A stretch of 64,000 nt of DNA from Gemmatimonadales bacterium (lineage in GTDB: Bacteria; Gemmatimonadota; Gemmatimonadetes; Gemmatimonadales; Gemmatimonadaceae): NCBI GenBank assembly GCA_038208045.1, contig JBBQZD010000001.1, positions 4,526 through 68,525 on the forward strand, given 5' to 3'. Positions 8,437 through 55,826 of the stretch are shown piece after piece (position 1 is the stretch's first letter; every line of letters starts with the position of its first letter). The notes below the pieces were generated by a model. The model made no database searches and was not told the DNA's origin. It saw nothing but the letters and a program-made list of their open reading frames with translations. The translations under genes were made by a program, and so were the position numbers.

Positions 8437-8637
8437 CGGTGAGGGATGCTCGGCTTTTTTCAACACGGAGACACTGAGGAAGAACTGAGGGCCACGGAGA
8501 CTGCTACTGCCAAATTCTTTGGGGCTCGGCGGTGAGATCTCCCCGCCGGGCCCCCGTTGAATTGTAGTTGTCGTCTCCGTGGCCCTCAGCTGTTCCTTCG
8601 TGTCTCCGTGTTGAAGCAGTAAAAGGAATCGCCACGC
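8437..8637 (+). repeat. NPR copy 2, beta/beta' arms (near-perfect long hairpin)
   Basis: TTCAACACGGAGACACTGAGGAAGAACTGAGGGCCACGGAGAC ... center ... GTCTCCGTGGCCCTCAGCTGTTCCTTCGTGTCTCCGTGTTGAA. It begins 1 nt after the upp stop. Confidence 0.9.
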
Positions 8638-10701: not shown

Positions 10702-12120
10702 TCACTTCCCCACACAGAACGTCCGGAACACGCGGTCCAGCACGTCCTCGACGTCCACGGCCCCGACCAATTCCTCCAGCGCCGTCACCGCCGCGCGCAG
10801 GTGCGTCGCCGCCACCGGAGCCGGGAGCGCCCGCTCCATCCACGCCGCGCGAAACGCCGCCAGTTCCTCGCGGGCACGCCGCAACGATGCCTCGTGCCGC
10901 GCCCGCGTCACCACCGGCGTCTCCTCATCCGGCGTCCCCACCCTCTCGAGCACTGCCCGCCGAATGGCCCCGCGCAACAACTGCAACCCCTCCCCACCAA
11001 CCGCACTAACGCAAACACCCCCCAAAGAAGCAGCCTCCGTGGCCCTCAGCCCTTCTCCGTGCCTCCGTGTTGAAGTTGCAGTAGCAGTTGCAGTAGCAGT
11101 TGCAGTAGCAGTTTCCCCCAAATCACACTTGGTCAGCACCGGCACCACCACCCCCGCAGTGAGCCCGCGCACCGCAACAACGGTGCGCTCCAGCACCTCG
11201 ACGCTGTCCGCGCAGGCAAGCACAACGTGCGCCTGCGCCACATACCGCTCGCTCACCTCGATGCCCAGCCGCTCCAGCGTGTCGCCGCTGTCGCGGAGCC
11301 CCGCCGTGTCGACCAGCCGTAGCGGGTACGGTGTGTCGTCTACCAGCACCTCCACCGCATCGCGTGTGGTCCCGGGGATCTCACTCACCAGCACGCGCGC
11401 CTCGCCCACCAGCGCGTTGAGCAGTGACGACTTGCCCGCATTCGGCGGTCCCGCCAGCACCACCAGCGCGCCATCCCGGCCGAGCGCCGCGGCCGGCAGC
11501 GTGGCGAGCAGCCGGTCTATCTGGGCCAGCGCCGCATCACACGCCGTCGCCACGCGCTCGCGCGACGGCGCCGCCTCGTCCTCCTCGGGGAAGTCGATCT
11601 CATAGGCAATCAGCGCATCCACCTGCAGCAGTGCCTCGCGCATCGCCAGCAGCCGCTGCGACAGCGCCCCGTCGAGTTGTCGCACCGCCGCGCGATGCGA
11701 CGCGCGCGACCGCGCATCAATCAGGTCGGCCACCGCCTCGGCGCGCACGAGGTCCAGCTTGCCGTGCAGCACCGCACGCTCGGTGAACTCCCCGGGCAGT
11801 GCCGGCCGCGCGCCCGCGGTCACGCACGCCGCCACCAGCAGCGTGCTCACCACCGAGCCGCCGTGCACCGCCAACTCCACCACGTCCTCGCCCGTGTACG
11901 AGTGCGGCGCGGCAAAGCGCGTCACGAGGCCGTGGTCAATCACCTGCGCCGGGTCGTCGGCGTCGTGCATCGTCACCAGCGTCGCCAGGCGCGCGCGCTC
12001 CGGAAACGGCGTCGTCACGCGTCGGGCGATGGCGAACGCCCGCGCGCCGCTCAGGCGCACGATTGCTATCGCCCCGCGTCCCGGGGCGGTGCTCACCGCG
12101 ACGATCGTGTCCGTGTTCAT
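10702..12120 (-). CDS. mnmE: tRNA modification GTPase MnmE (TrmE), carrying a repeat-derived insertion in the G domain
   Basis: 472 aa with GPPNAGKSSLLN (G1), DTAG (G3), TKCD (G4), SAVGGEG (G5) and C-terminal FCVGK. Confidence 0.95.
   Translation of the reverse strand: MNTDTIVAVSTAPGRGAIAIVRLSGARAFAIARRVTTPFPERARLATLVTMHDADDPAQVIDHGLVTRFAAPHSYTGEDVVELAVHGGSVVSTLLVAACVTAGARPALPGEFTERAVLHGKLDLVRAEAVADLIDARSRASHRAAVRQLDGALSQRLLAMREALLQVDALIAYEIDFPEEDEAAPSRERVATACDAALAQIDRLLATLPAAALGRDGALVVLAGPPNAGKSSLLNALVGEARVLVSEIPGTTRDAVEVLVDDTPYPLRLVDTAGLRDSGDTLERLGIEVSERYVAQAHVVLACADSVEVLERTVVAVRGLTAGVVVPVLTKCDLGETATATATATATATSTRRHGEGLRATEAASLGGVCVSAVGGEGLQLLRGAIRRAVLERVGTPDEETPVVTRARHEASLRRAREELAAFRAAWMERALPAPVAATHLRAAVTALEELVGAVDVEDVLDRVFRTFCVGK
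11018..11075 (+). repeat. NPR partial copy 3 (right half, beta'-type arm) embedded in frame in mnmE
   Basis: ccccccaaagaagcagcctccgtggccctcagcccttctccgtgcctccgtgttgaag matches the right halves of copies 1, 2, 5, 9 and 10. Confidence 0.8.
11075..11113. repeat. 12-bp tandem repeat (gttgcagtagca x3 + gtt) inside mnmE, encoding (TA)6-T
   Basis: Read directly; in frame; abuts the element half-copy. Confidence 0.9.
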
Positions 12121-12130
12121 CTCAGGTCTT

Positions 12131-12323
12131 GTGCGCCAGTCAGGGCGTGTTCAACACGGAGACACCGAGGAAGGCTGAGGGCCCCGGAGACCGCCTTGAA
12201 GGAAACAAGAAACAGGGGGCCGGCGGACGAATATGTCCCCCGAACCCCGATAATGAAGCAGCCTCCGTGGCCCTCGCCGTCAACTCCGTGGCTCCGTGTC
12301 GAAGAAAGGGCAGAATGGCGCAC
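12131..12323 (-). repeat. NPR copy 4, inverted orientation (beta left arm / alpha' right arm)
   Basis: ttcaacacggagacaccgaggaaggctgagggccccggag ... cctccgtggccctcgccgtcaactccgtggctccgtgtcgaa. It fills the yidC-stop to mnmE-start spacer. Confidence 0.85.
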
Positions 12324-12333
12324 CAAGACAGGC

Positions 12334-14040
12334 CTACGTCTTCACCCCGGTCGCACCCTTCGCCCGCTCATTGGCAATCAGCCATTGCTGCGGCAGCGCC
12401 GCCAGGTTCTGGATCGTGTAGTACAGGTTCAGCCCCGACGCAAAGTTGATCAGGAAGAACGTCATCATTGCCGGCATGATGTACGCCATCATCTTCGCCT
12501 GCGGGTTCGGCGGCGCGTTGCGCATGCCGATCCAGCTCAGCACGTACATCGACGCGCCCATCACGAGCGGCAGGATGTACAGCGGATCCTTCAGCGAGAT
12601 GTCGGGCAGCCACATGAACGACACGCCGCGGAACTCGATCGTGTTCTGGAACACGAAGAACAGCGCGAACAGGATTGGCATCGGCAGCAGCATCGGCAGG
12701 CAGCCCAGCAGCGGGCTCAGCGGGCTCATGCCGTGCTCGCTGTACAGCTTCATGATCTCGGCCTGCTGCTTCTGCGGGTCGCTCTTGTACTTGGCCTGCA
12801 GCGCCTGCATCTCGGGCTGAATGCGCTGCAGCTTCATGCTCGCGCGCATCGCCTTCTGGTTGAGCGGCCACATCATCAGGCGGATCACCACGCCGAAGAT
12901 CACCAGCACCCAGCCGTAGTTCAGGTGCGTGGTGGCCTTCATCCAGAGCAGCGAGCGCATCACGATGGTCGCGAACGGCTGCACCACGCCCTGCAGAAAG
13001 CCGCCGTAGGGGTTGGCATTTTCGAAGTCCCGCCCCAGGGCGCGCATGCGCTCCCATTCCTGCGGCCCGGTGTACAGGTCGAACGACACGGTGCCGTTGC
13101 CCAGTGGAAGCACCGCCGTCGCGATGCCGCGCGTGGCCATCTTCGACGTGCGCGCGCCGCCCTCGAAATGCACCTCGGCGATCGTGGGCGCCTTTTCCGA
13201 CGTCAGCAGCGCCACCACGAAGTACTTGTTCTTCGCCACCGCCCACAGCATCGGTCCCACCTCGAGCCGCTGTTCGCCCGGGTCGAGCTTGTGGAACGGA
13301 ATGCCCTTGGACCCGCCCTTCTGCGGCTTCACCGCATAGGCCAGCGCGTTCAGGTCCCCAAGCGTGTCGCCTTCCTGCGACACGAACCCCGTCGGCATGT
13401 CCACCAGCAGGAAGGCCGGGGTGGGAACGCCGGTCACGGTCGTCTTCACCGTGCTCAGATAGCTGTCGGGCGTCATCGTGTACTGCACGGTGATGTCGGC
13501 CGTGCCGTGCACGCCGTGGAACGTCACCGTCGGCGCGTCGCCAGCGCCGACCGCGCGCGTGCTGGTGAACTGCATCGTCGACAGGCGAATCGTGTCGTTG
13601 CCCGCCAGGATGCGATAGCGCAGCAGGGGCTCGCCCTTCTGGTGAATCGTCACGAGTCCCTTGTTCGGACCCAGGCCGTGATACCGCGGCACCTCCACGT
13701 CGAGCGGCGCGGCGCCGACACTGGAGAGACGCAGGTGGCTCAGCGCCGTGTTGACGGTCACCGTTTCCGGCACGACCATCGTCGGTGCGCCGGGGGCCGC
13801 CGCGCCGGCCGGTCCCTGGGTTGCGCCGACAGCGGCGCCGACGGCGGCGCCCATGGCCGGCACGGGCGCCGAGGGAGTCACGGCCGTCGGATTCGCCGCC
13901 GCTCCGGCGGCCGCATCCGACGACGCCACGACTTCCGTGGGCGCGGAAGATGGTGCGGGCTTGACGCGCGGAAACAGGAAGGGCGTGGCAACCACCACCA
14001 CCCCGGACAGCGCGAATGCTAGAAAGAGCTTTTTATCCAT
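12334..14040 (-). CDS. yidC: membrane protein insertase YidC
   Basis: 568 aa with a large periplasmic domain and a C-terminal 60-kDa IMP core (MKLQRIQPEMQALQAKYK...NLYYTIQNL). Conserved rpmH-rnpA-yidD-yidC-mnmE synteny. Confidence 0.95.
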   Translation of the reverse strand: MDKKLFLAFALSGVVVVATPFLFPRVKPAPSSAPTEVVASSDAAAGAAANPTAVTPSAPVPAMGAAVGAAVGATQGPAGAAAPGAPTMVVPETVTVNTALSHLRLSSVGAAPLDVEVPRYHGLGPNKGLVTIHQKGEPLLRYRILAGNDTIRLSTMQFTSTRAVGAGDAPTVTFHGVHGTADITVQYTMTPDSYLSTVKTTVTGVPTPAFLLVDMPTGFVSQEGDTLGDLNALAYAVKPQKGGSKGIPFHKLDPGEQRLEVGPMLWAVAKNKYFVVALLTSEKAPTIAEVHFEGGARTSKMATRGIATAVLPLGNGTVSFDLYTGPQEWERMRALGRDFENANPYGGFLQGVVQPFATIVMRSLLWMKATTHLNYGWVLVIFGVVIRLMMWPLNQKAMRASMKLQRIQPEMQALQAKYKSDPQKQQAEIMKLYSEHGMSPLSPLLGCLPMLLPMPILFALFFVFQNTIEFRGVSFMWLPDISLKDPLYILPLVMGASMYVLSWIGMRNAPPNPQAKMMAYIMPAMMTFFLINFASGLNLYYTIQNLAALPQQWLIANERAKGATGVKT

Positions 14041-15040: not shown

Positions 15041-15100
15041 AACTGTCGTGCTCTGTCGTTCTCTGTCGTTCTCTGTCGTTCTCTGTCTTCCTCTGGTCCT
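15041..15100 (+). repeat. 10-bp phased tandem repeat (ctctgtcgtt x3, flanked by degenerate units) ending 2 nt before the dnaA ATG
   Basis: aactgtcgtg ctctgtcgtt ctctgtcgtt ctctgtcgtt ctctgtcttc ctctggtcct, read directly. Confidence 0.9.
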
Positions 15101-17834: not shown

Positions 17835-17840
17835 GCCAGG

Positions 17841-18033
17841 GGCGCCATTCGGGGCTTTGTTCAACACGGAGCCACGGAGTTGACGGCAAGGGCCACGGAG
17901 ACTGCAACGGCAATTCAAGGGGGCCTGGGGGACAGCACGGTCCCCCGGGCCCCTGAGATTTTGTAATCGCAGCCTCCGTGGCCCTCAGCTTTTCCTCGGT
18001 GTCTCCGTGTTGAAAAAAGCCAAGAATGGCGCC
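17841..18033 (+). repeat. NPR copy 5 (alpha left arm / beta' right arm), full length with outer GGCGCCATTC...GAATGGCGCC palindrome
   Basis: Read directly. It fills the spacer between dnaN (stop 17834) and the convergent gene (stop 18045). Confidence 0.9.
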
Positions 18034-18044
18034 CCAGAACCCAG

Positions 18045-18998: not shown

Positions 18999-19002
18999 GG
19001 AC

Positions 19003-19367
19003 GACGGTGGGCCTGTAAGCCGGGTTCTGTCGGAACCGAAGTTCCGGACGGTCATTTCTCTCGGTGTACGGTCGCCCGCACACTCCAGCAACCAACCCGC
19101 GGCGTCTTGATCGCAGAGGACTGCTGCTCGCCGCCTATTTGGTCTTGCTCCCGCTGGGGTTTGCCGTGCCACACGTGTTGCCACGTGCGCGGTGGGCTCT
19201 TACCCCACCCTTTCACCCTTACCTCGGCTTTCGCCAAGGCGGTTTGCTTTCTGTTGCACTGTCCGTCACGCCTCACGGCGTGCCCAGGCGTTACCTGGCA
19301 GCGTGTCCATGGAGCCCGGACTTTCCTCGAAGCGGTTGCCCGCGTCGCGACCGTCCGGCCGCACCAA
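19003..19367 (-). ncRNA. rnpB: RNase P RNA, bacterial type A
   Basis: The minus strand contains CGAGGAAAGTCCGGGCTCCATGG (P4 5' strand), GCCAGGTAACGCCTGGG, AGTGCAACAGAAAGCAAACCGCC, GGTAAGGGTGAAAGGGTGGGGTAAGAGCCCACC and ACAGAACCCGGCTTACAGG (P4 3' strand). This is collinear with E. coli M1 RNA. The ends are estimated from P1 pairing (+/- 5 nt). Confidence 0.9.
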
Positions 19368-20408: not shown

Positions 20409-20420
20409 GCGCGCATGAGC

Positions 20421-20556
20421 AGGCAGCAGAGAAAGGCCGAGGGTCACGGAGCCGGCGACATACAGTCAAGCGAGGACATTATGAACCTCGAACCCGACAT
20501 TCCCAGCGTCGTCTCCGTGGCCCTCGGCCCTGCTCCGCGCCTTCGTGGTGAAGAAG
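20421..20556. repeat. NPR copy 6, degenerate (beta-type arms, replaced center) overlapping the 5' end of the GxxExxY gene
   Basis: The left arm gcagcagagaaaggccgagggtcacggagccggc matches ~24/34 to the copy 4 left arm. The right arm gtctccgtggccctcggccctgctccgcgccttcgtggtgaagaag aligns with the copy 1 right arm. Confidence 0.55.
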
Positions 20557-20969
20557 TTCACGCACCGAACGCGGCCAACACCGCCGTCGACCTCAAGCAC
20601 ACGCACGACCCGCTTACCGAACGCGTCATCGACGCCGCCATCGAGGTGCATCGGCAGCTTGGCCCGGGCCTGCTCGAGTCGGTGTACCAGCTCGCGCTCG
20701 AATACGAACTGCTCGCGCGGGGCATCTCGTTCGTCAGCGAGGTGCGGCTGCCGGTCCGCTACAAAGGGATGGAACTCGCCGGGCTGCTGCGGCTGGACCT
20801 CGTGGTCGAACGCGACCTCGTTGTGGAACTCAAGTCCGTGGACATCGTGCACGCCGTGAACCACGCGCAGGTGCTGACGTACCTCCGCCTTGGCGGCTTC
20901 CGCCGTGGGCTGCTGATCAACTTCAACGTCAGTCGGCTGGCCAACGGGGTGCGGCGGTTCGTGAGCTAG
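20481..20969 (+). CDS. GxxExxY protein (PD-(D/E)XK nuclease superfamily, TIGR04256-like)
   Basis: GLLESVYQLALEY (G-x-x-E-x-x-Y) and DLVVERDLVVELKS (D...ExK). ATG at 20481 with GAGGA 6 nt upstream. There is no alternative in-frame start downstream of the repeat arm. Confidence 0.8.
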   Translation: MNLEPDIPSVVSVALGPAPRLRGEEVHAPNAANTAVDLKHTHDPLTERVIDAAIEVHRQLGPGLLESVYQLALEYELLARGISFVSEVRLPVRYKGMELAGLLRLDLVVERDLVVELKSVDIVHAVNHAQVLTYLRLGGFRRGLLINFNVSRLANGVRRFVS

Positions 20970-30290: not shown

Positions 30291-30296
30291 TGTAGT

Positions 30297-30489
30297 CCGC
30301 CATACCGGGCTTGTTTCAACACGGAGCCACGGAGTCAACGGCGAGGGCCACGGAGGCAGCGACTACAAATTCCTTGGGGGTTTGGTGGACAGTCCCGTCC
30401 GCCGAGCCCCTTGGAATTGCGGGTGCAGTCCAGGTGGCCCTCGCCGTTGACTCCGTGGCTCCGTGTTGAAAGAAGCTTCAAATGGCGCC
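30297..30489 (-). repeat. NPR copy 8, alpha/alpha' arms (near-perfect hairpin), center inverted relative to copies 9 and 10
   Basis: The reverse complement of its center (ggggctcggcggacgggactgtccaccaaaccccc) matches the centers of copies 9 and 10. Confidence 0.9.
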
Positions 30490-30501
30490 CCACACTCGGC
30501 T

Positions 30502-44873: not shown

Positions 44874-44880
44874 CTTGGGT

Positions 44881-45082
44881 GGGCAATTCTGGGCTTCTTT
44901 CAACACGGAGCCACGGAGTTGAGGGCGAGGACCACGGAGACGGCAACGGCAATTCCAAGGGGGCTCGGCAAACGGGACTGTCCGCCGGGCCCCCCAAGTA
45001 TTTGTAGTTGCGGTCTCCGTGGCCCTCAGCCTTTCCTCTGTGGCTCCGTGTTCCGTGTTGAAAAAAGCTCAGAATGGCGCAC
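44881..45082 (+). repeat. NPR copy 9 (alpha / beta' arms; extra ccgtgtt duplication at the right end)
   Basis: Read directly. It fills the convergent spacer between stop 44873 and stop 45087. Confidence 0.9.
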
Positions 45083-45086
45083 CGAG

Positions 45087-53659: not shown

Positions 53660-53663
53660 TTTG

Positions 53664-53863
53664 AACGCCATTCGGGGCTTTTTCAACACGGAGCCACGGA
53701 GTCAACGGCGAGGGCCACGGAGGCTGCAACGGCAATTCAAAGGGGGCTCGGCGAACGGGACTGTCCACCGGGCCCCCAAGTATTTGTAGTTGCCGTCTCC
53801 GTGGCCCTCAGCCTTTCCTCGGTGTCTCCGTGTTCCGTGTTGAAAAAGTCCGGAATGGCGCAC
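53664..53863 (+). repeat. NPR copy 10 (alpha / beta' arms), full length
   Basis: Read directly. It begins 4 nt after the helicase stop, and its last base overlaps the tag stop codon. Confidence 0.9.
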
Positions 53864-54569: not shown

Positions 54570-55826
54570 ATGCGCCTGTTCCTCTTGGTCGTGCTGGCAG
54601 CGTCCGCGGGCTGTCGCGCGCCACGGCACGCCGAGCCGTCGCAGCACGCGCAGCACGCGCAGCACGCGCAGCACGCGCAGCACAAGGTGCTGCTGGTTTC
54701 GCTCGACGGATTCCGCGCCGACTACATCCAGCGGCCGGCCGCGGTGCGCCTGCGAGAGCTCGCAGCCCGCGGCGTGCGTGCCGAGCGGATGGTGCCCGCC
54801 TTTCCGTCGAAGACCTTTCCCAACCACTACACCATCGTCACCGGGCTCTATCCTGAGCACCACGGCATCGTGGCGAATGTGATCTGGGACGACGTCATCG
54901 GCAAGCGGTTCACGATTAGCGACACGCTCATCACGCACGATCCGCGCTGGTGGGGTGGCGAGCCGCTGTGGGCAACGGTCGAACGACAGGGCAAGCGCGC
55001 CGCGTCGTATTTCTGGGTTGGCTCCGACATCACCATCGCCGGCCGACGGCCGACGTGGTGGAAGGCCTATGACGGGCGTGTGCCGAACAGCGAGCGGGTC
55101 CGGCAGGTGCTCGAGTGGCTGTCGATGCCGGGTGACACCGCGCCGGTGTTCGTGTCGACGTATTTCAGCACCACCGACGACTCGGGCCACGCGCACGGCC
55201 CGGATGCGCCGCAGACCGACCTGGCGATCGCCGACGTGGACCGGCAGGTGGGTGCCCTCATGGATGGCATCGCCGCGCGTGGTTTGGCAGACCGTGTGGA
55301 CGTCGTCGTGGTCTCGGATCACGGCATGACAGCGCTGTCGGCCGAGCGGGTGATCTATCTCGACGACTTCATCGATCTCTCGAAGGTCGACATCGTGGAC
55401 ATGTCACCCGTGGGCGCGATTGCGCCGAAGGCCGGATACGAAGACGAGGCATACCGCCGGCTGAAGGACGCCCACCCGCACATGCAGGTCTACCGGAAAG
55501 GGGCGGTGCCGACTCGATTCCACTTCAACGCCCACCCGCGCATCACCCCGATCGTGACGATCGCCGATGAAGGATGGACCATGACGACGCACGCCAACGT
55601 GCGTCGCAATGGCCTGCCGAAGGGCGGAACCCACGGGTACGACAACCTGCTGCCGTCGATGGGTGCGCTGTTCGTGGCGGCAGGGCCCGACTTCAGGCAG
55701 GGGGTGGTGGTGCCCGCGTTCCAGAACATCCACGTCTACGAACTGCTGGCGGGCATCATTGGCGTGCGGCCGGCAGCGAACGATGGCTCGGCGGATTCGA
55801 CGCGGGGGATGCTCAGGAAGCGCTAG
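54570..55826 (+). CDS. ectonucleotide pyrophosphatase/phosphodiesterase (NPP, alkaline-phosphatase superfamily) lipoprotein
   Basis: Lipobox LAASAGC; VLLVSLDGFRADY, FPSKTFPNHYTIVTGLYPEHHGIV, SDHGM, GTHGYDN. Confidence 0.85.
   Translation: MRLFLLVVLAASAGCRAPRHAEPSQHAQHAQHAQHAQHKVLLVSLDGFRADYIQRPAAVRLRELAARGVRAERMVPAFPSKTFPNHYTIVTGLYPEHHGIVANVIWDDVIGKRFTISDTLITHDPRWWGGEPLWATVERQGKRAASYFWVGSDITIAGRRPTWWKAYDGRVPNSERVRQVLEWLSMPGDTAPVFVSTYFSTTDDSGHAHGPDAPQTDLAIADVDRQVGALMDGIAARGLADRVDVVVVSDHGMTALSAERVIYLDDFIDLSKVDIVDMSPVGAIAPKAGYEDEAYRRLKDAHPHMQVYRKGAVPTRFHFNAHPRITPIVTIADEGWTMTTHANVRRNGLPKGGTHGYDNLLPSMGALFVAAGPDFRQGVVVPAFQNIHVYELLAGIIGVRPAANDGSADSTRGMLRKR
54641..54683. repeat. 9-bp tandem repeat (gcagcacgc x4.8) in the NPP linker, encoding (QHA)4-QH
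   Basis: Read directly; in frame; lies between the lipobox Cys and the catalytic domain. Confidence 0.9.

Follow-up and report, generated by a model that had tools for sequence, protein, structure and literature searches.

Protein-coding genes of Rickettsia carry in-frame insertions of Rickettsia palindromic elements, or RPEs (Ogata et al. 2000, 2002; reviewed in PMC10969869), and close to half of the R. conorii copies are located within ORFs (PMC10969869). Intragenic fusions of ERIC, BOX and other MITEs have been described in enterobacteria, pneumococci and cyanobacteria (Delihas 2007; Croucher 2011; Wolk 2010; as cited in PMC10969869), and REP/REPIN populations have been reported elsewhere (Bertels & Rainey 2011, PMC3116915; PMC8049555). 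The mnmE gene of the Gemmatimonadaceae genome studied here resembles the RPE cases in that a member of a short, non-autonomous palindromic family lies in frame inside a conserved housekeeping gene, where it would add a peptide at a position predicted to suit the fold of an otherwise intact host protein, and is shared by related species. With the ERIC, BOX and MITE fusions it has in common a MITE-like repeat with open frames giving in-frame fusions or extensions of ORFs; those fusions are mostly terminal extensions or strain-specific events, whereas the mnmE loop is internal to an essential-type GTPase domain and is conserved across a clade. Like REP/REPIN populations, the repeats are palindromic, intergenic and abundant, and their copies make up a sequence population within each genome, with master sequences specific to that genome. 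REPs, imperfect palindromes that form pairs associated with a RAYT transposase, are ∼20–25 nt long, in contrast to arms of ∼65–80 nt with three CAC[G/A]GAG heptamers, a separate central hairpin module and a whole unit of ∼200 nt in the present family, which places it outside the REP/REPIN size range; to our knowledge, REPINs have not been described as translated protein loops.

The host gene occupies 10702..12120 on the minus strand of the window (i.e. the whole 64-kb stretch of DNA that was analysed; its genome is denoted W below) and is an intact ORF for the tRNA modification GTPase MnmE/TrmE, 472 aa in length. Its Pfam matches (TrmE_N, 2e-36; MMR_HSR1, 2e-19; MnmE_helical, 4e-44) are accompanied by the three-domain MnmE/TrmE architecture of an N-terminal TrmE_N domain and a helical domain within which the G domain is inserted. 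Solved MnmE structures in the PDB were matched at 7e-74, the top 10 Foldseek matches were all MnmE/TrmE, and the G domain had a target-normalised TM-score (TMt) of 0.73–0.77 against 2gj8. The G1 motif GPPNAGKS, the G4 motif TKCD (residues 330–333; codons at 11122..11133, minus strand, from the translation and codon listing), the G5 motif SAV (residues 372–374; 10999..11007, minus strand, from the translation) and the C-terminal FCVGK (C-x-G-K) were all present, and their residues, K331, D333 and S372 among them, were invariant in an alignment of 82 sequences. Codon comparison indicates that mnmE is under purifying selection, because 47 synonymous and only 11 non-synonymous differences separate the whole gene of W from its 97%-identical orthologue L081.

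Between G4 and G5 the minus-strand translation reads ...TKCD-LGE-TATATATATATAT-STRRHGEGLRATEAASLGG-VCVSAV..., so that the insert is read in frame. The portion STRRHGEGLRATEAASLGG is encoded at 11018..11075 (minus strand) by half of a palindromic repeat element, the right half when viewed on the plus strand, as recognized by nhmmer, a shared 21-mer and alignment; the coding strand runs through it from the terminal TTCAACACGGAG up to the central GGGGGG. This 21-mer, GAAGCAGCCTCCGTGGCCCTC, lies at 11027–11047, recurs exactly at 12255–12275 and is found with 2–3 mismatches at four further element copies, with 0 matches expected from shuffled sequence. A profile HMM of the repeat family, made from six full copies, matched 11026–11075 on HMM positions 22–72 (E 3e-10 to 3e-9), and the same segment on the opposite strand gave an equivalent match to HMM positions 130–187. 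The C-run at 11018–11023 corresponds to the central GGGGG/CCCCC boundary of the element; what is kept is a single arm with the linker up to the central GGGGG. In common with RPEs, the segment has DNA-level homology to a repeat family dispersed in the same genome (nhmmer E 3e-10), the host frame is preserved and the protein is otherwise intact; it is not a complete palindromic element encoding a conserved peptide, since a single arm with its linker is present and the peptides differ among orthologues. The proposal that half the element was kept on account of stop codons in full elements was rejected, as one frame or more is fully open in 54 of the 74 oriented full elements. The stretch TTGGGGGAAACTGC directly after G4 resembles the centre boundary of the other element type, and was set aside as too short to mean anything.

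The window has a spacer of 38 aa between the G4 D and the G5 S, against 19 aa for chain 9hip_A of the E. coli type, and the loop running from the G4 D up to beta6 measures 35 aa compared with 13–16 aa in MnmE from outgroup Gemmatimonadota. GC content is 58% across 11018–11113 and 71% for mnmE. An AlphaFold2 model of moderate quality (mean pLDDT 79, pTM 0.53) assigned pLDDT <50 to residues 339–356, between beta5/G4 and beta6/G5, and a weak helix was predicted at residues 356–365, where alpha4 would be; on this model the insert is probably a largely disordered, exposed surface loop. The stretch TATATSTRRHGEGLR is part of the predicted loop translation. An earlier sequence-only reading of this locus had placed a half-element at 11018–11075, in frame between G4 (TKCD) and G5 (SAV), with a spacer of 38 aa against ∼19 aa in E. 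coli MnmE, an open reading frame and an intact FCVGK, all of which held when examined with the repeat and nhmmer matches, the minus-strand translation, 9hip_A, and the Pfam and PDB matches of the 472-aa protein. Its expectation of a surface loop agrees, at low model confidence, with the structure prediction.

The family element is a nearly perfect palindrome of ∼200 nt. Seven long copies (six full-length and one of ∼175 nt) and three shorter partial matches, including the mnmE insert, were found in the window. The full copies, listed without strand, lie at 8438..8635 (nhmmer, 177 bits), 12129..12325 (146 bits), 17840..18036 (194 bits), 30294..30492 (184 bits), 44879..45084 (194 bits) and 53662..53863 (189 bits), and the copy at 17840..18036 folds as one hairpin of −146.5 kcal/mol with a fold z-score of −13.3. 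With terminal inverted repeats, small size, no coding capacity and multiple dispersed copies, the family is MITE-like in its sequence features. Only RNase P passed the Rfam gathering threshold in the window, the element itself gave no Rfam family and at most sub-threshold matches to miRNA hairpins, and a literature search for Gemmatimonas repeats did not recover the family. An insertion sequence fused to mnmE in L171 had an unrelated sequence context, and no link to these repeats was found.

The copy at 12129..12325 fills the gap between yidC and mnmE. On the coding strand it lies ∼1.1 kb upstream of the insert and 9 nt before the start codon of mnmE, and besides the insert it alone has the exact 21-mer. 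The same gap is occupied by a copy in L081, L082, L084, L086, L087, L093, L094, L101 and L174. When matches outside mnmE were inspected gene by gene in L082, L084 and L088, none of ∼20 fell inside genes; the other copies in these genomes were intergenic or overlapped a gene end by a few bases at most. Coding insertions are therefore rare; the earlier remark that coding DNA can receive the element is correct, but mnmE is the exception.

In relatives, the upstream element is a frequent point of contig breakage (L172, L173), so the family does disturb assemblies, and the insert might be suspected of arising from misassembly through a repeat, or of being a chance resemblance in GC-rich, low-complexity DNA. 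We consider such an artefact highly improbable: the insert is in frame in independent assemblies from NCBI, ENA, JGI and Logan, shuffled sequences gave 0 expected matches, and the nhmmer E was 3e-10. Misassembly is further contradicted by the independent assembly L081 (GCA_046595275.1) and many metagenomic orthologues, which carry the same insert.

The insert is common to a clade of Gemmatimonadaceae whose MnmE proteins are ∼68–80% identical, represented by many independent assemblies, and is thus neither recent nor strain-specific. The same site, half and orientation were found in W, L081, L082, L084, L086, L087 and L088; these align from the outer flank and TTCA.CAC.GAG onward as far as the central GGGG, and the alignment stops just before the beta6 codons. 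The arrangement recurs in L093, L094, L097, L101, L091 and L172–L174; overall, the ∼15 orthologue genomes for which DNA was available (window included) have the same arm in the same orientation with the same GGGG end beside the beta6 codons. By nhmmer the intragenic match was significant in W, L081, L082, L084, L086 and L088, and likewise in L092, L093, L094, L097 and L101. The repeat family was present in 22 of 171 loci, all of them from close relatives. It was absent from all distant Gemmatimonadota loci examined and from the syntenic L090, the MnmE loop of which also lacks the motif. These loci came in part from a profile search with C-terminal alignment, which yielded at least about a dozen useful loci; a whole-protein search of genome contigs gave, among the matches listed, distant relatives (≤62% identity) that served as negatives for the family, and an exact DNA pattern across the junction (CTTCTTGGGG...GGATTNGTGCGGGTGAG) had 0 matches in metagenome contigs.

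The probable explanation of these observations is, in our view, that the repeat was captured once, in frame and long ago, was tolerated, and has since been rewritten through gene conversion by copies nearby. The ∼200-nt MITE-like intergenic palindrome, or its half, would have entered mnmE in the ancestor of a Gemmatimonas-like clade, directly after the G4 aspartate codon, replacing the short G4–beta6 loop. The second arm would then have been lost, a fate to be expected when a gene contains a long palindrome. In the frame used, the retained arm is free of stop codons, and within the Ras-like G domain it would sit at a distance from the conserved motifs, in the variable alpha4 region; for both reasons it is predicted to be translated as a tolerated, largely disordered surface loop. 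A single origin is not proven, because P0021/P0024 and L096, which have an ancestral-like 17-aa loop, fall inside the ingroup (29–61% bootstrap) of a poorly supported MnmE backbone tree.

To compare each insert with the repeats of its own genome, variants were typed at two diagnostic sites of the terminal 12-mer. The family arms were AG in 12 of 14 cases in W and 3 of 3 in L081, and both inserts are AG; in L082 the arms (14/14) and insert are CA, and in L084 (11/11) and L093 (2/2) arms and insert are TA. Insert and family were also concordant in L101, L172 and L091, which were read by eye. On these sites the intragenic half-copy usually carries the genome-specific family variant, with the proviso that the counts come from phylogenetically non-independent genomes with 2–14 arms each. 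A semi-global identity matrix of inserts and arms was dropped in favor of these anchored sites; it could not separate own-genome from foreign arms because cheap gaps and repeated heptamers inflated all values to 0.75–0.95.

Agreement extended beyond the diagnostic sites in several genomes. The L087 insert has an odd TCTCTCACGGAGACCGGAG, as do its own family copies; over 68 nt, the L084 insert matches the left arm of the copy immediately upstream at 96% identity; the exact 21-mer of the W insert, including a short linker, is found otherwise only in the upstream neighbour; and the linker GGACTGCTACTGCAACT is common to the L174 insert and its neighbour. Exceptions were also seen: the L174 and L173 inserts are beta-type next to readable adjacent arms of alpha type (both arms in L174, the right arm only in L173), those of L094 and L086 match a minority arm type only, and that of L089 is decayed. 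Insert and upstream neighbour are of one type in L084, L093, L172 and L101, and partly so in L086, but not in L174 and L173; an invariable match between them was dropped as a rule, and the partial agreement was kept as evidence for mosaic tracts. Loop history is also discordant with that of the rest of the gene. In one clade (90% bootstrap), loops of the alpha and beta types are intermingled, and across eight genes flank identity was 0.836 within and 0.844 between loop types, whereas loop identity was 0.751 within and 0.650 between types. The flanks of L173 (beta) are closest to those of L172 (alpha) at 0.89, yet their loops are 0.63 identical.

Gene conversion from other family copies may have overwritten the loop DNA repeatedly in short mosaic tracts, with the full copy ∼1.1 kb upstream in the yidC–mnmE gap as a likely donor, and as a consequence the insert would usually carry its genome's variant. 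We tentatively propose, as a plausible but by no means assured reading, that coding and non-coding copies evolve in concert, such that the dispersed family, and especially the gap copy, re-templates, re-frames and re-sizes the MnmE G4–G5 loop. Homologous recombination that swaps whole loop alleles between lineages would also produce a discordant history. Recurrent independent insertion at a G4–G5 hot spot, each event bringing the current variant of its genome, would account for the genome-specific inserts, for the interspersed alpha and beta types and for the ancestral-like "empty" loops of P0021/P0024 and L096 among insert-bearers in the weakly supported tree. We nevertheless find it unlikely, given that ∼15 genomes share arm, orientation and GGGG end and that ∼20 matches outside mnmE in L082, L084 and L088 include none inside a gene. 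Moreover, a half-element should not transpose as a unit because one terminus is missing.

The loop has not behaved as a conserved peptide. L086 (SSRRTAGGPRSSATATSWG) and L087 (LSRRPEEHGGHGD) translate the same arm in shifted frames, and compensated frameshifts and partial deletions occur in the loop among orthologues. Loop deletions separate sisters (P0020 versus P0043/P0037, 98% bootstrap; P0026/P0060 versus P0041/P0061). Loop amino acids change faster than the remainder of MnmE, and between W and L081 the loop contains 3 non-synonymous and 1 synonymous codon differences. These sequence comparisons show a loop that is not selected for its amino-acid sequence, but that drifts, shifts frame internally and shrinks by deletion.

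A selected function at the protein level, e.g. contact with MnmG, tRNA or a partner, tuned by (Thr-Ala)n, would be in keeping with the motif S-x-R-R-H-G-E...R-A-T-E that recurs in many orthologues, with maintenance of the frame over long divergence and with the helix predicted at 356–365 in the place of alpha4. The recurring motif, however, is what the family consensus DNA encodes, and frame-shifted (L086, L087) and truncated (P0026, P0041, P0037, P0043) loops persist in intact genes; with the mostly non-synonymous differences to L081 (3 versus 1) and a loop pLDDT <50, we judge recruitment quite unlikely. Where the sequence-only reading suggested that MnmE "tolerates, or has recruited" the repeat, tolerance agrees with our results, and recruitment as protein runs against the frame shifts, deletions and fast amino-acid change.

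Selection could alternatively act on the nucleic acid, the arm being kept as DNA or RNA that binds a factor recognizing the CAC[G/A]GAG array or pairs with the upstream arm in the mRNA. The nucleotide sequence does track the family while the peptide is not conserved, and a full copy stands 9 nt upstream of the mnmE start, with relatives having a copy in the same gap. Against pairing, the upstream element would fold very stably on itself (−146.5 kcal/mol, the figure listed for copy 17840..18036), and the L084 insert follows the direct-repeat (left) arm of its neighbour, not the complement of the right arm, where the arms differ. Most of the insert has been deleted in several lineages, and no trans-acting factor is known; such a function seems very unlikely.

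Adjoining the half-element is a 12-nt microsatellite at 11074..11113 (minus strand), with coding-strand unit ACTGCTACTGCA in 3.3 copies encoding (Thr-Ala)n. Tandem Repeats Finder (TRF) reported period 12, 100% matches and a score of 80, in line with the 12-bp tandem repeat proposed beforehand. The length polymorphism anticipated for it was also found, with 3.3 units in W and 2.3 in L081, exactly one unit apart, and one synonymous variant in the L081 array. Between near-identical strains only this repeat number varies, with two alleles so far. The ACTGC-rich junction would expand and contract by replication slippage in 12-nt multiples, which would give a (Thr-Ala)n stretch of strain-specific length. 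The unit ACTGCTACTGCA also matches element linkers at 8500–8511 and 17901–17912 (11 matches versus 2.2 expected); a link to the element linker is suggestive only, because most of the 11 matches are the array itself. In its unit of a multiple of three, perfect copies and copy number varying between close strains, the array is similar to in-frame coding microsatellites (simple-sequence contingency repeats), but it alters loop length and does not switch the gene on and off.

Compared with RPEs, the mnmE insert retains just one half of the palindrome and is, among dozens of copies seen, the sole intragenic one; it encodes a peptide that is not conserved and undergoes frame shifts, and it occurs in a different phylum, the Gemmatimonadota. 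It also seems to co-vary with the genome-specific variant, a behavior not mentioned for RPEs in PMC10969869. The best reading is of a known kind of event with an unusual concerted-evolution twist, and it would provide a second clear case outside Rickettsia. For work on these genomes, the family is a practical concern, since it breaks assemblies and inflates ORF calls, and the 12-nt repeat offers a ready-made strain marker. The locus indicates that a selfish palindromic repeat can persist over long periods within a universally conserved enzyme without abolishing its activity, and that the MnmE alpha4 region between G4 and G5 is a permissive site for at least 20 extra residues of arbitrary sequence. 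If the co-variation holds, the locus would let conversion between non-coding repeats and a coding copy be measured, and the repeats would generate protein-loop diversity; a selfish palindromic repeat would, if this is true, act as a donor pool for the surface loop of a universally conserved GTPase.

The mnmE ORF (10702..12120, minus strand) encodes a 472-aa protein with the complete MnmE/TrmE architecture (TrmE_N 2e-36, MMR_HSR1 2e-19, MnmE_helical 4e-44); the product matched solved MnmE structures (7e-74), as did its predicted fold. From a yidC-like ORF (12334..14040) and the syntenic gene tables of relatives, we infer the usual rpmH-rnpA-yidD-yidC-mnmE context, adjoining dnaA and dnaN. In the stretch that separates the G4 codons (TKCD, 11122-11133) from the G5 codons (SAV, 10999-11007), both on the minus strand, the coding strand reads GAT TTG GGG GAA (ACTGCTACTGCA)x3.3 AC-TTCAACACGGAGGCACGGAGAAGGGCTGAGGGCCACGGAGGCTGCTTCTTTGGGGGG-TGTTTGCGTTAGTGCG. 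Tandem Repeats Finder resolved a 12-nt array at 11074-11113 (3.3 copies, 100% matches), and the GC content of the inserted segment (11018-11113) was 58% vs 71% across mnmE. A 21-mer at 11027-11047 (GAAGCAGCCTCCGTGGCCCTC) recurred exactly at 12255, in the copy of a palindromic repeat element that fills the yidC-mnmE gap, and with 2-3 mismatches in four other element copies (0 matches expected from shuffles). A profile HMM built from six full copies matched mnmE at 11026-11075 (E = 3e-10), the match consisting of one arm of the palindrome and ending at its central G/C run. Because this segment matches the repeat family so strongly, the sequence-only reading of a half-element and a 12-nt array lying in frame between G4 and G5 was borne out in every detail, including a spacer of 38 aa compared to 19 aa in E. 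coli.

Seven long copies of the element were found in the window, six of them full-length and one of ~175 nt (2108-2282, 8438-8635, 12129-12325 in the yidC-mnmE gap, 17840-18036, 30294-30492, 44879-45084 and 53662-53863), together with shorter partial matches, besides the mnmE insert, at about 20431 and 22677. Every element is a near-perfect palindrome of ~200 nt, and the copy folded as 17838-18038 formed a single hairpin (-146.5 kcal/mol, z = -13.3). Each arm carries three CAC[G/A]GAG heptamers; the GC-rich central hairpin, a module separate from the arms, has two alternative forms that differ by lineage, and the terminal sequences are genome-specific. No Rfam family matched the element, our literature search found no paper on it, and the family is apparently undescribed so far; by its features it is not a REP. 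The family was present in 22 of the 171 fetched loci (1.97 Mb), all from close relatives, where its density is very high (7-9 matches per 21 kb; L082, L084, L086, L088 and L089 carry it). It was absent from every distant Gemmatimonadota locus fetched and from L090, which is perfectly syntenic and whose MnmE loop lacks the motif described below. Comparison of gene calls with element matches in L082, L084 and L088 placed all copies outside mnmE in intergenic DNA, many spanning the whole gap; the mnmE copy is a rare exception.

Several further observations concern the family. In two copies (45045-45059, 53822-53841) one terminus is longer by a 7-nt duplication (TCCGTGT / GTGTTCC), a small slippage event within the terminal repeat. 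Two metagenomic contigs start within the element upstream of mnmE (L172 1-199, L173 1-66), so the family evidently breaks short-read assemblies. The longest frame of a PDDEXK_3-type ORF (20415-20969, plus strand) starts inside a degenerate copy (20431-20555) and gives 184 aa vs 130 aa in relatives; either its start is over-called or the element provides an N-terminal extension.

A protein collection search and alignment of 120 homologues identified P0001 (97% identity) as closest, with the same loop minus one Thr-Ala-Thr-Ala unit. The 12-nt array is polymorphic in length and would change by slippage. Relatives are annotated as Gemmatimonas sp. or Gemmatimonadaceae. Variants of S-x-R-R-H-G-E-x-x-R-A-T-E occupy the same site in dozens of orthologues (68-80% identity), and the next clade out (~60% identity) has a uniform loop of 13-16 aa without this motif. 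DNA was fetched for 18 orthologous loci, and the same element half was found in the loop of ~15 genomes (the window plus L081, L082, L084, L086-L088, L091-L094, L097, L101 and L172-L174); L089 retains at this site a decayed remnant that scored below the nhmmer threshold. In the ~15 genomes the orientation is always the same, and the aligned part runs from the outer flank and terminal TTCA.CAC.GAG, immediately following the G4 Asp codon, to the central GGGG directly before the beta6 codons. The loop of mnmE is element-derived, in frame and clade-wide, and not strain-specific, an option the orthologue alignment had been proposed to check. Independent assemblies carry the insert, which excludes an artefact, the most improbable of the explanations weighed.

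Recurrent independent insertion at a hot spot is unlikely, since the genomes have the same half in the same orientation with the same end points, and since coding insertions of this element are rare. We infer a single ancestral capture as probable; against a single origin, P0021/P0024 and L096, with an ancestral-like LV.xSYE loop, were placed, with weak support, among insert-bearing sequences. The other arm would subsequently have been lost, since long palindromes are unstable. L096/L098, P0021 and P0024 share an ancestral-like 17-aa loop (LVATSYEMSAPEGARSA), yet a weak element match lies upstream of their mnmE. As candidate "empty site" lineages, they would help to date the insertion. In another relative, L171 (6001-8127), the mnmE frame passes directly from the G5 "SAT" into a DDE_Tnp_1_4/DDE_Tnp_1 transposase (708-aa product); either an IS has inserted a few codons beyond the loop, on its downstream side, or the contig is chimeric. 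In L086 (8671-9722) and L171 (4932-5980), a small element-flanked gene pair including an AbiEii-type toxin lies between yidC and mnmE.

The loop peptide is not conserved. The L086 loop has a 1-nt insertion (GGAG-C-TCACGGAG) that changes the frame, and the same arm is translated as SSRRTAGGPRSSATATSWG; in L087 it is translated as LSRRPEEHGGHGD. Loop deletion is progressive in well-supported sister groups (P0020, 24 aa, vs P0043/P0037, 12-13 aa, 98% bootstrap; likewise P0060/P0026 vs P0041/P0061, 84% bootstrap). Between the window and L081, the whole of mnmE differs by 47 synonymous and 11 non-synonymous codons, and the 35-codon loop by 1 synonymous and 3 non-synonymous, plus an indel. These frame shifts, deletions and substitutions make a selected protein function of the loop improbable. 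In G domains of the Ras-like type, the segment running from G4 through alpha4 and beta6 to G5 is situated opposite the switch regions. An AlphaFold2 model of moderate quality (82-sequence alignment, mean pLDDT 79) gave pLDDT < 50 for residues 339-356 (TATATATATATSTRRHGE) and a weak predicted helix at 356-365, at the expected alpha4 position of a Ras-like fold. A permissive alpha4 region would explain why the loop is tolerated.

The inserts were compared with the repeats of their own genomes after anchoring arms on the first heptamer (2-14 arms sampled per genome, from incomplete genomes). The terminal 12-mer was diagnostic for the genome: TTCAACACGGAG in the window (12/14 arms), TTCACCACAGAG in L082 (14/14), TTCATCACAGAG in L084 (10/10 arms listed, 11/11 in another count), TTCACCACGGAG in L089 (14/14) and an odd variant, TCTCTCACGGAGACCGGAG, in L087. 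The insert had its own genome's majority state in the window, L081, L082, L084 and L093 and, judged by eye, in L101, L172, L091 and L087; its state was that of a minority of arms in L094, L086 and L088, disagreed with its own family in L174 and was decayed in L089. Internal features were also concordant (CACAAAGGGCC in L084, the third heptamer GGCCACAGAG in L082). By these comparisons, insert DNA co-varies with the local family, and some inserts are closest to the copy directly upstream of mnmE: the L084 insert and the left arm of that copy share 96% identity over 68 nt, and in the window an exact 21-mer with an unusually short linker (GCTGCTTC) is common only to the insert and the neighbour at 12255. 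In L174 the linker GGACTGCTACTGCAACT is common to insert and neighbour and the remainder is of another type, a pattern suggestive of mosaicism in short tracts.

The history of the loop is also discordant with that of mnmE. In neighbour-joining trees with a weak backbone, one clade (90% bootstrap) holds two loop types, alpha (TATDSSQRHGGARRATEDYNG.FLGG) and beta (LPRSSRRTAGGPRSTATATSWGN), which correspond to two arm subfamilies and two reading frames. The types are interspersed, with P0017 (alpha) and P0013 (beta) as sisters (83% support) and likewise P0022 (beta) and P0019 (alpha; 67%). For the DNA of four alpha and four beta genes, flank identity was 0.836 within and 0.844 between types, and loop identity 0.751 and 0.650. 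The nearest flanks to L173 (beta) are those of L172 (alpha), at 0.89, and the loops of this pair are only 0.63 identical, so replacement or exchange of the loop has occurred separately from the remainder of mnmE. That the insert functions at the DNA or RNA level seems unlikely: at positions where the two arms of the neighbour differ, the L084 insert agrees with the direct-repeat arm and does not complement the other. Gene conversion from elsewhere in the family, above all from the direct-repeat arm ~1.1 kb upstream, probably keeps the insert family-like. Concerted evolution of the intragenic copy with the repeat family is the more novel reading, and is judged slightly less likely than not.

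The array unit ACTGCTACTGCA resembles the third heptamer-to-centre linker of several elements (ACTGCTACTGCC, CAACTGCTACTGC; window 8500-8511 and 17901-17912, L093 2800-2815, L174 about 620-640), and the element may thus be the source of the (Thr-Ala)n tract as well. The window has three more short tandem repeats that are perfect or nearly so, at 765-808 (12 nt x3.7), 15043-15095 (10 nt x5.3) and 54640-54683 (9 nt x4.9); those with units of 12 and 9 nt may likewise be coding microsatellites in frame. The sole Rfam family above threshold was bacterial class A RNase P RNA (19000-19367, minus strand, 287 bits).

Rickettsia palindromic elements provide the nearest precedent: they are reported to lie in frame within numerous housekeeping genes, at fold-compatible positions (Ogata et al. 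2000, 2002, as reviewed in PMC10969869). The same review cites intragenic fusions of ERIC, BOX and cyanobacterial MITEs, which are further precedents. The principle is common to both; however, the mnmE insert keeps only half of the palindrome, is the one intragenic member of a family whose other copies are intergenic (as checked in L082, L084 and L088), encodes a peptide that is not conserved, and appears to evolve in concert with its family. For the genome-specific character of the repeat population, REPIN populations (PMC3116915, PMC8049555) are a conceptual parallel. In-frame palindromic insertion is already known, and the new aspect of the mnmE insert would be its possible concerted evolution with the repeat family.
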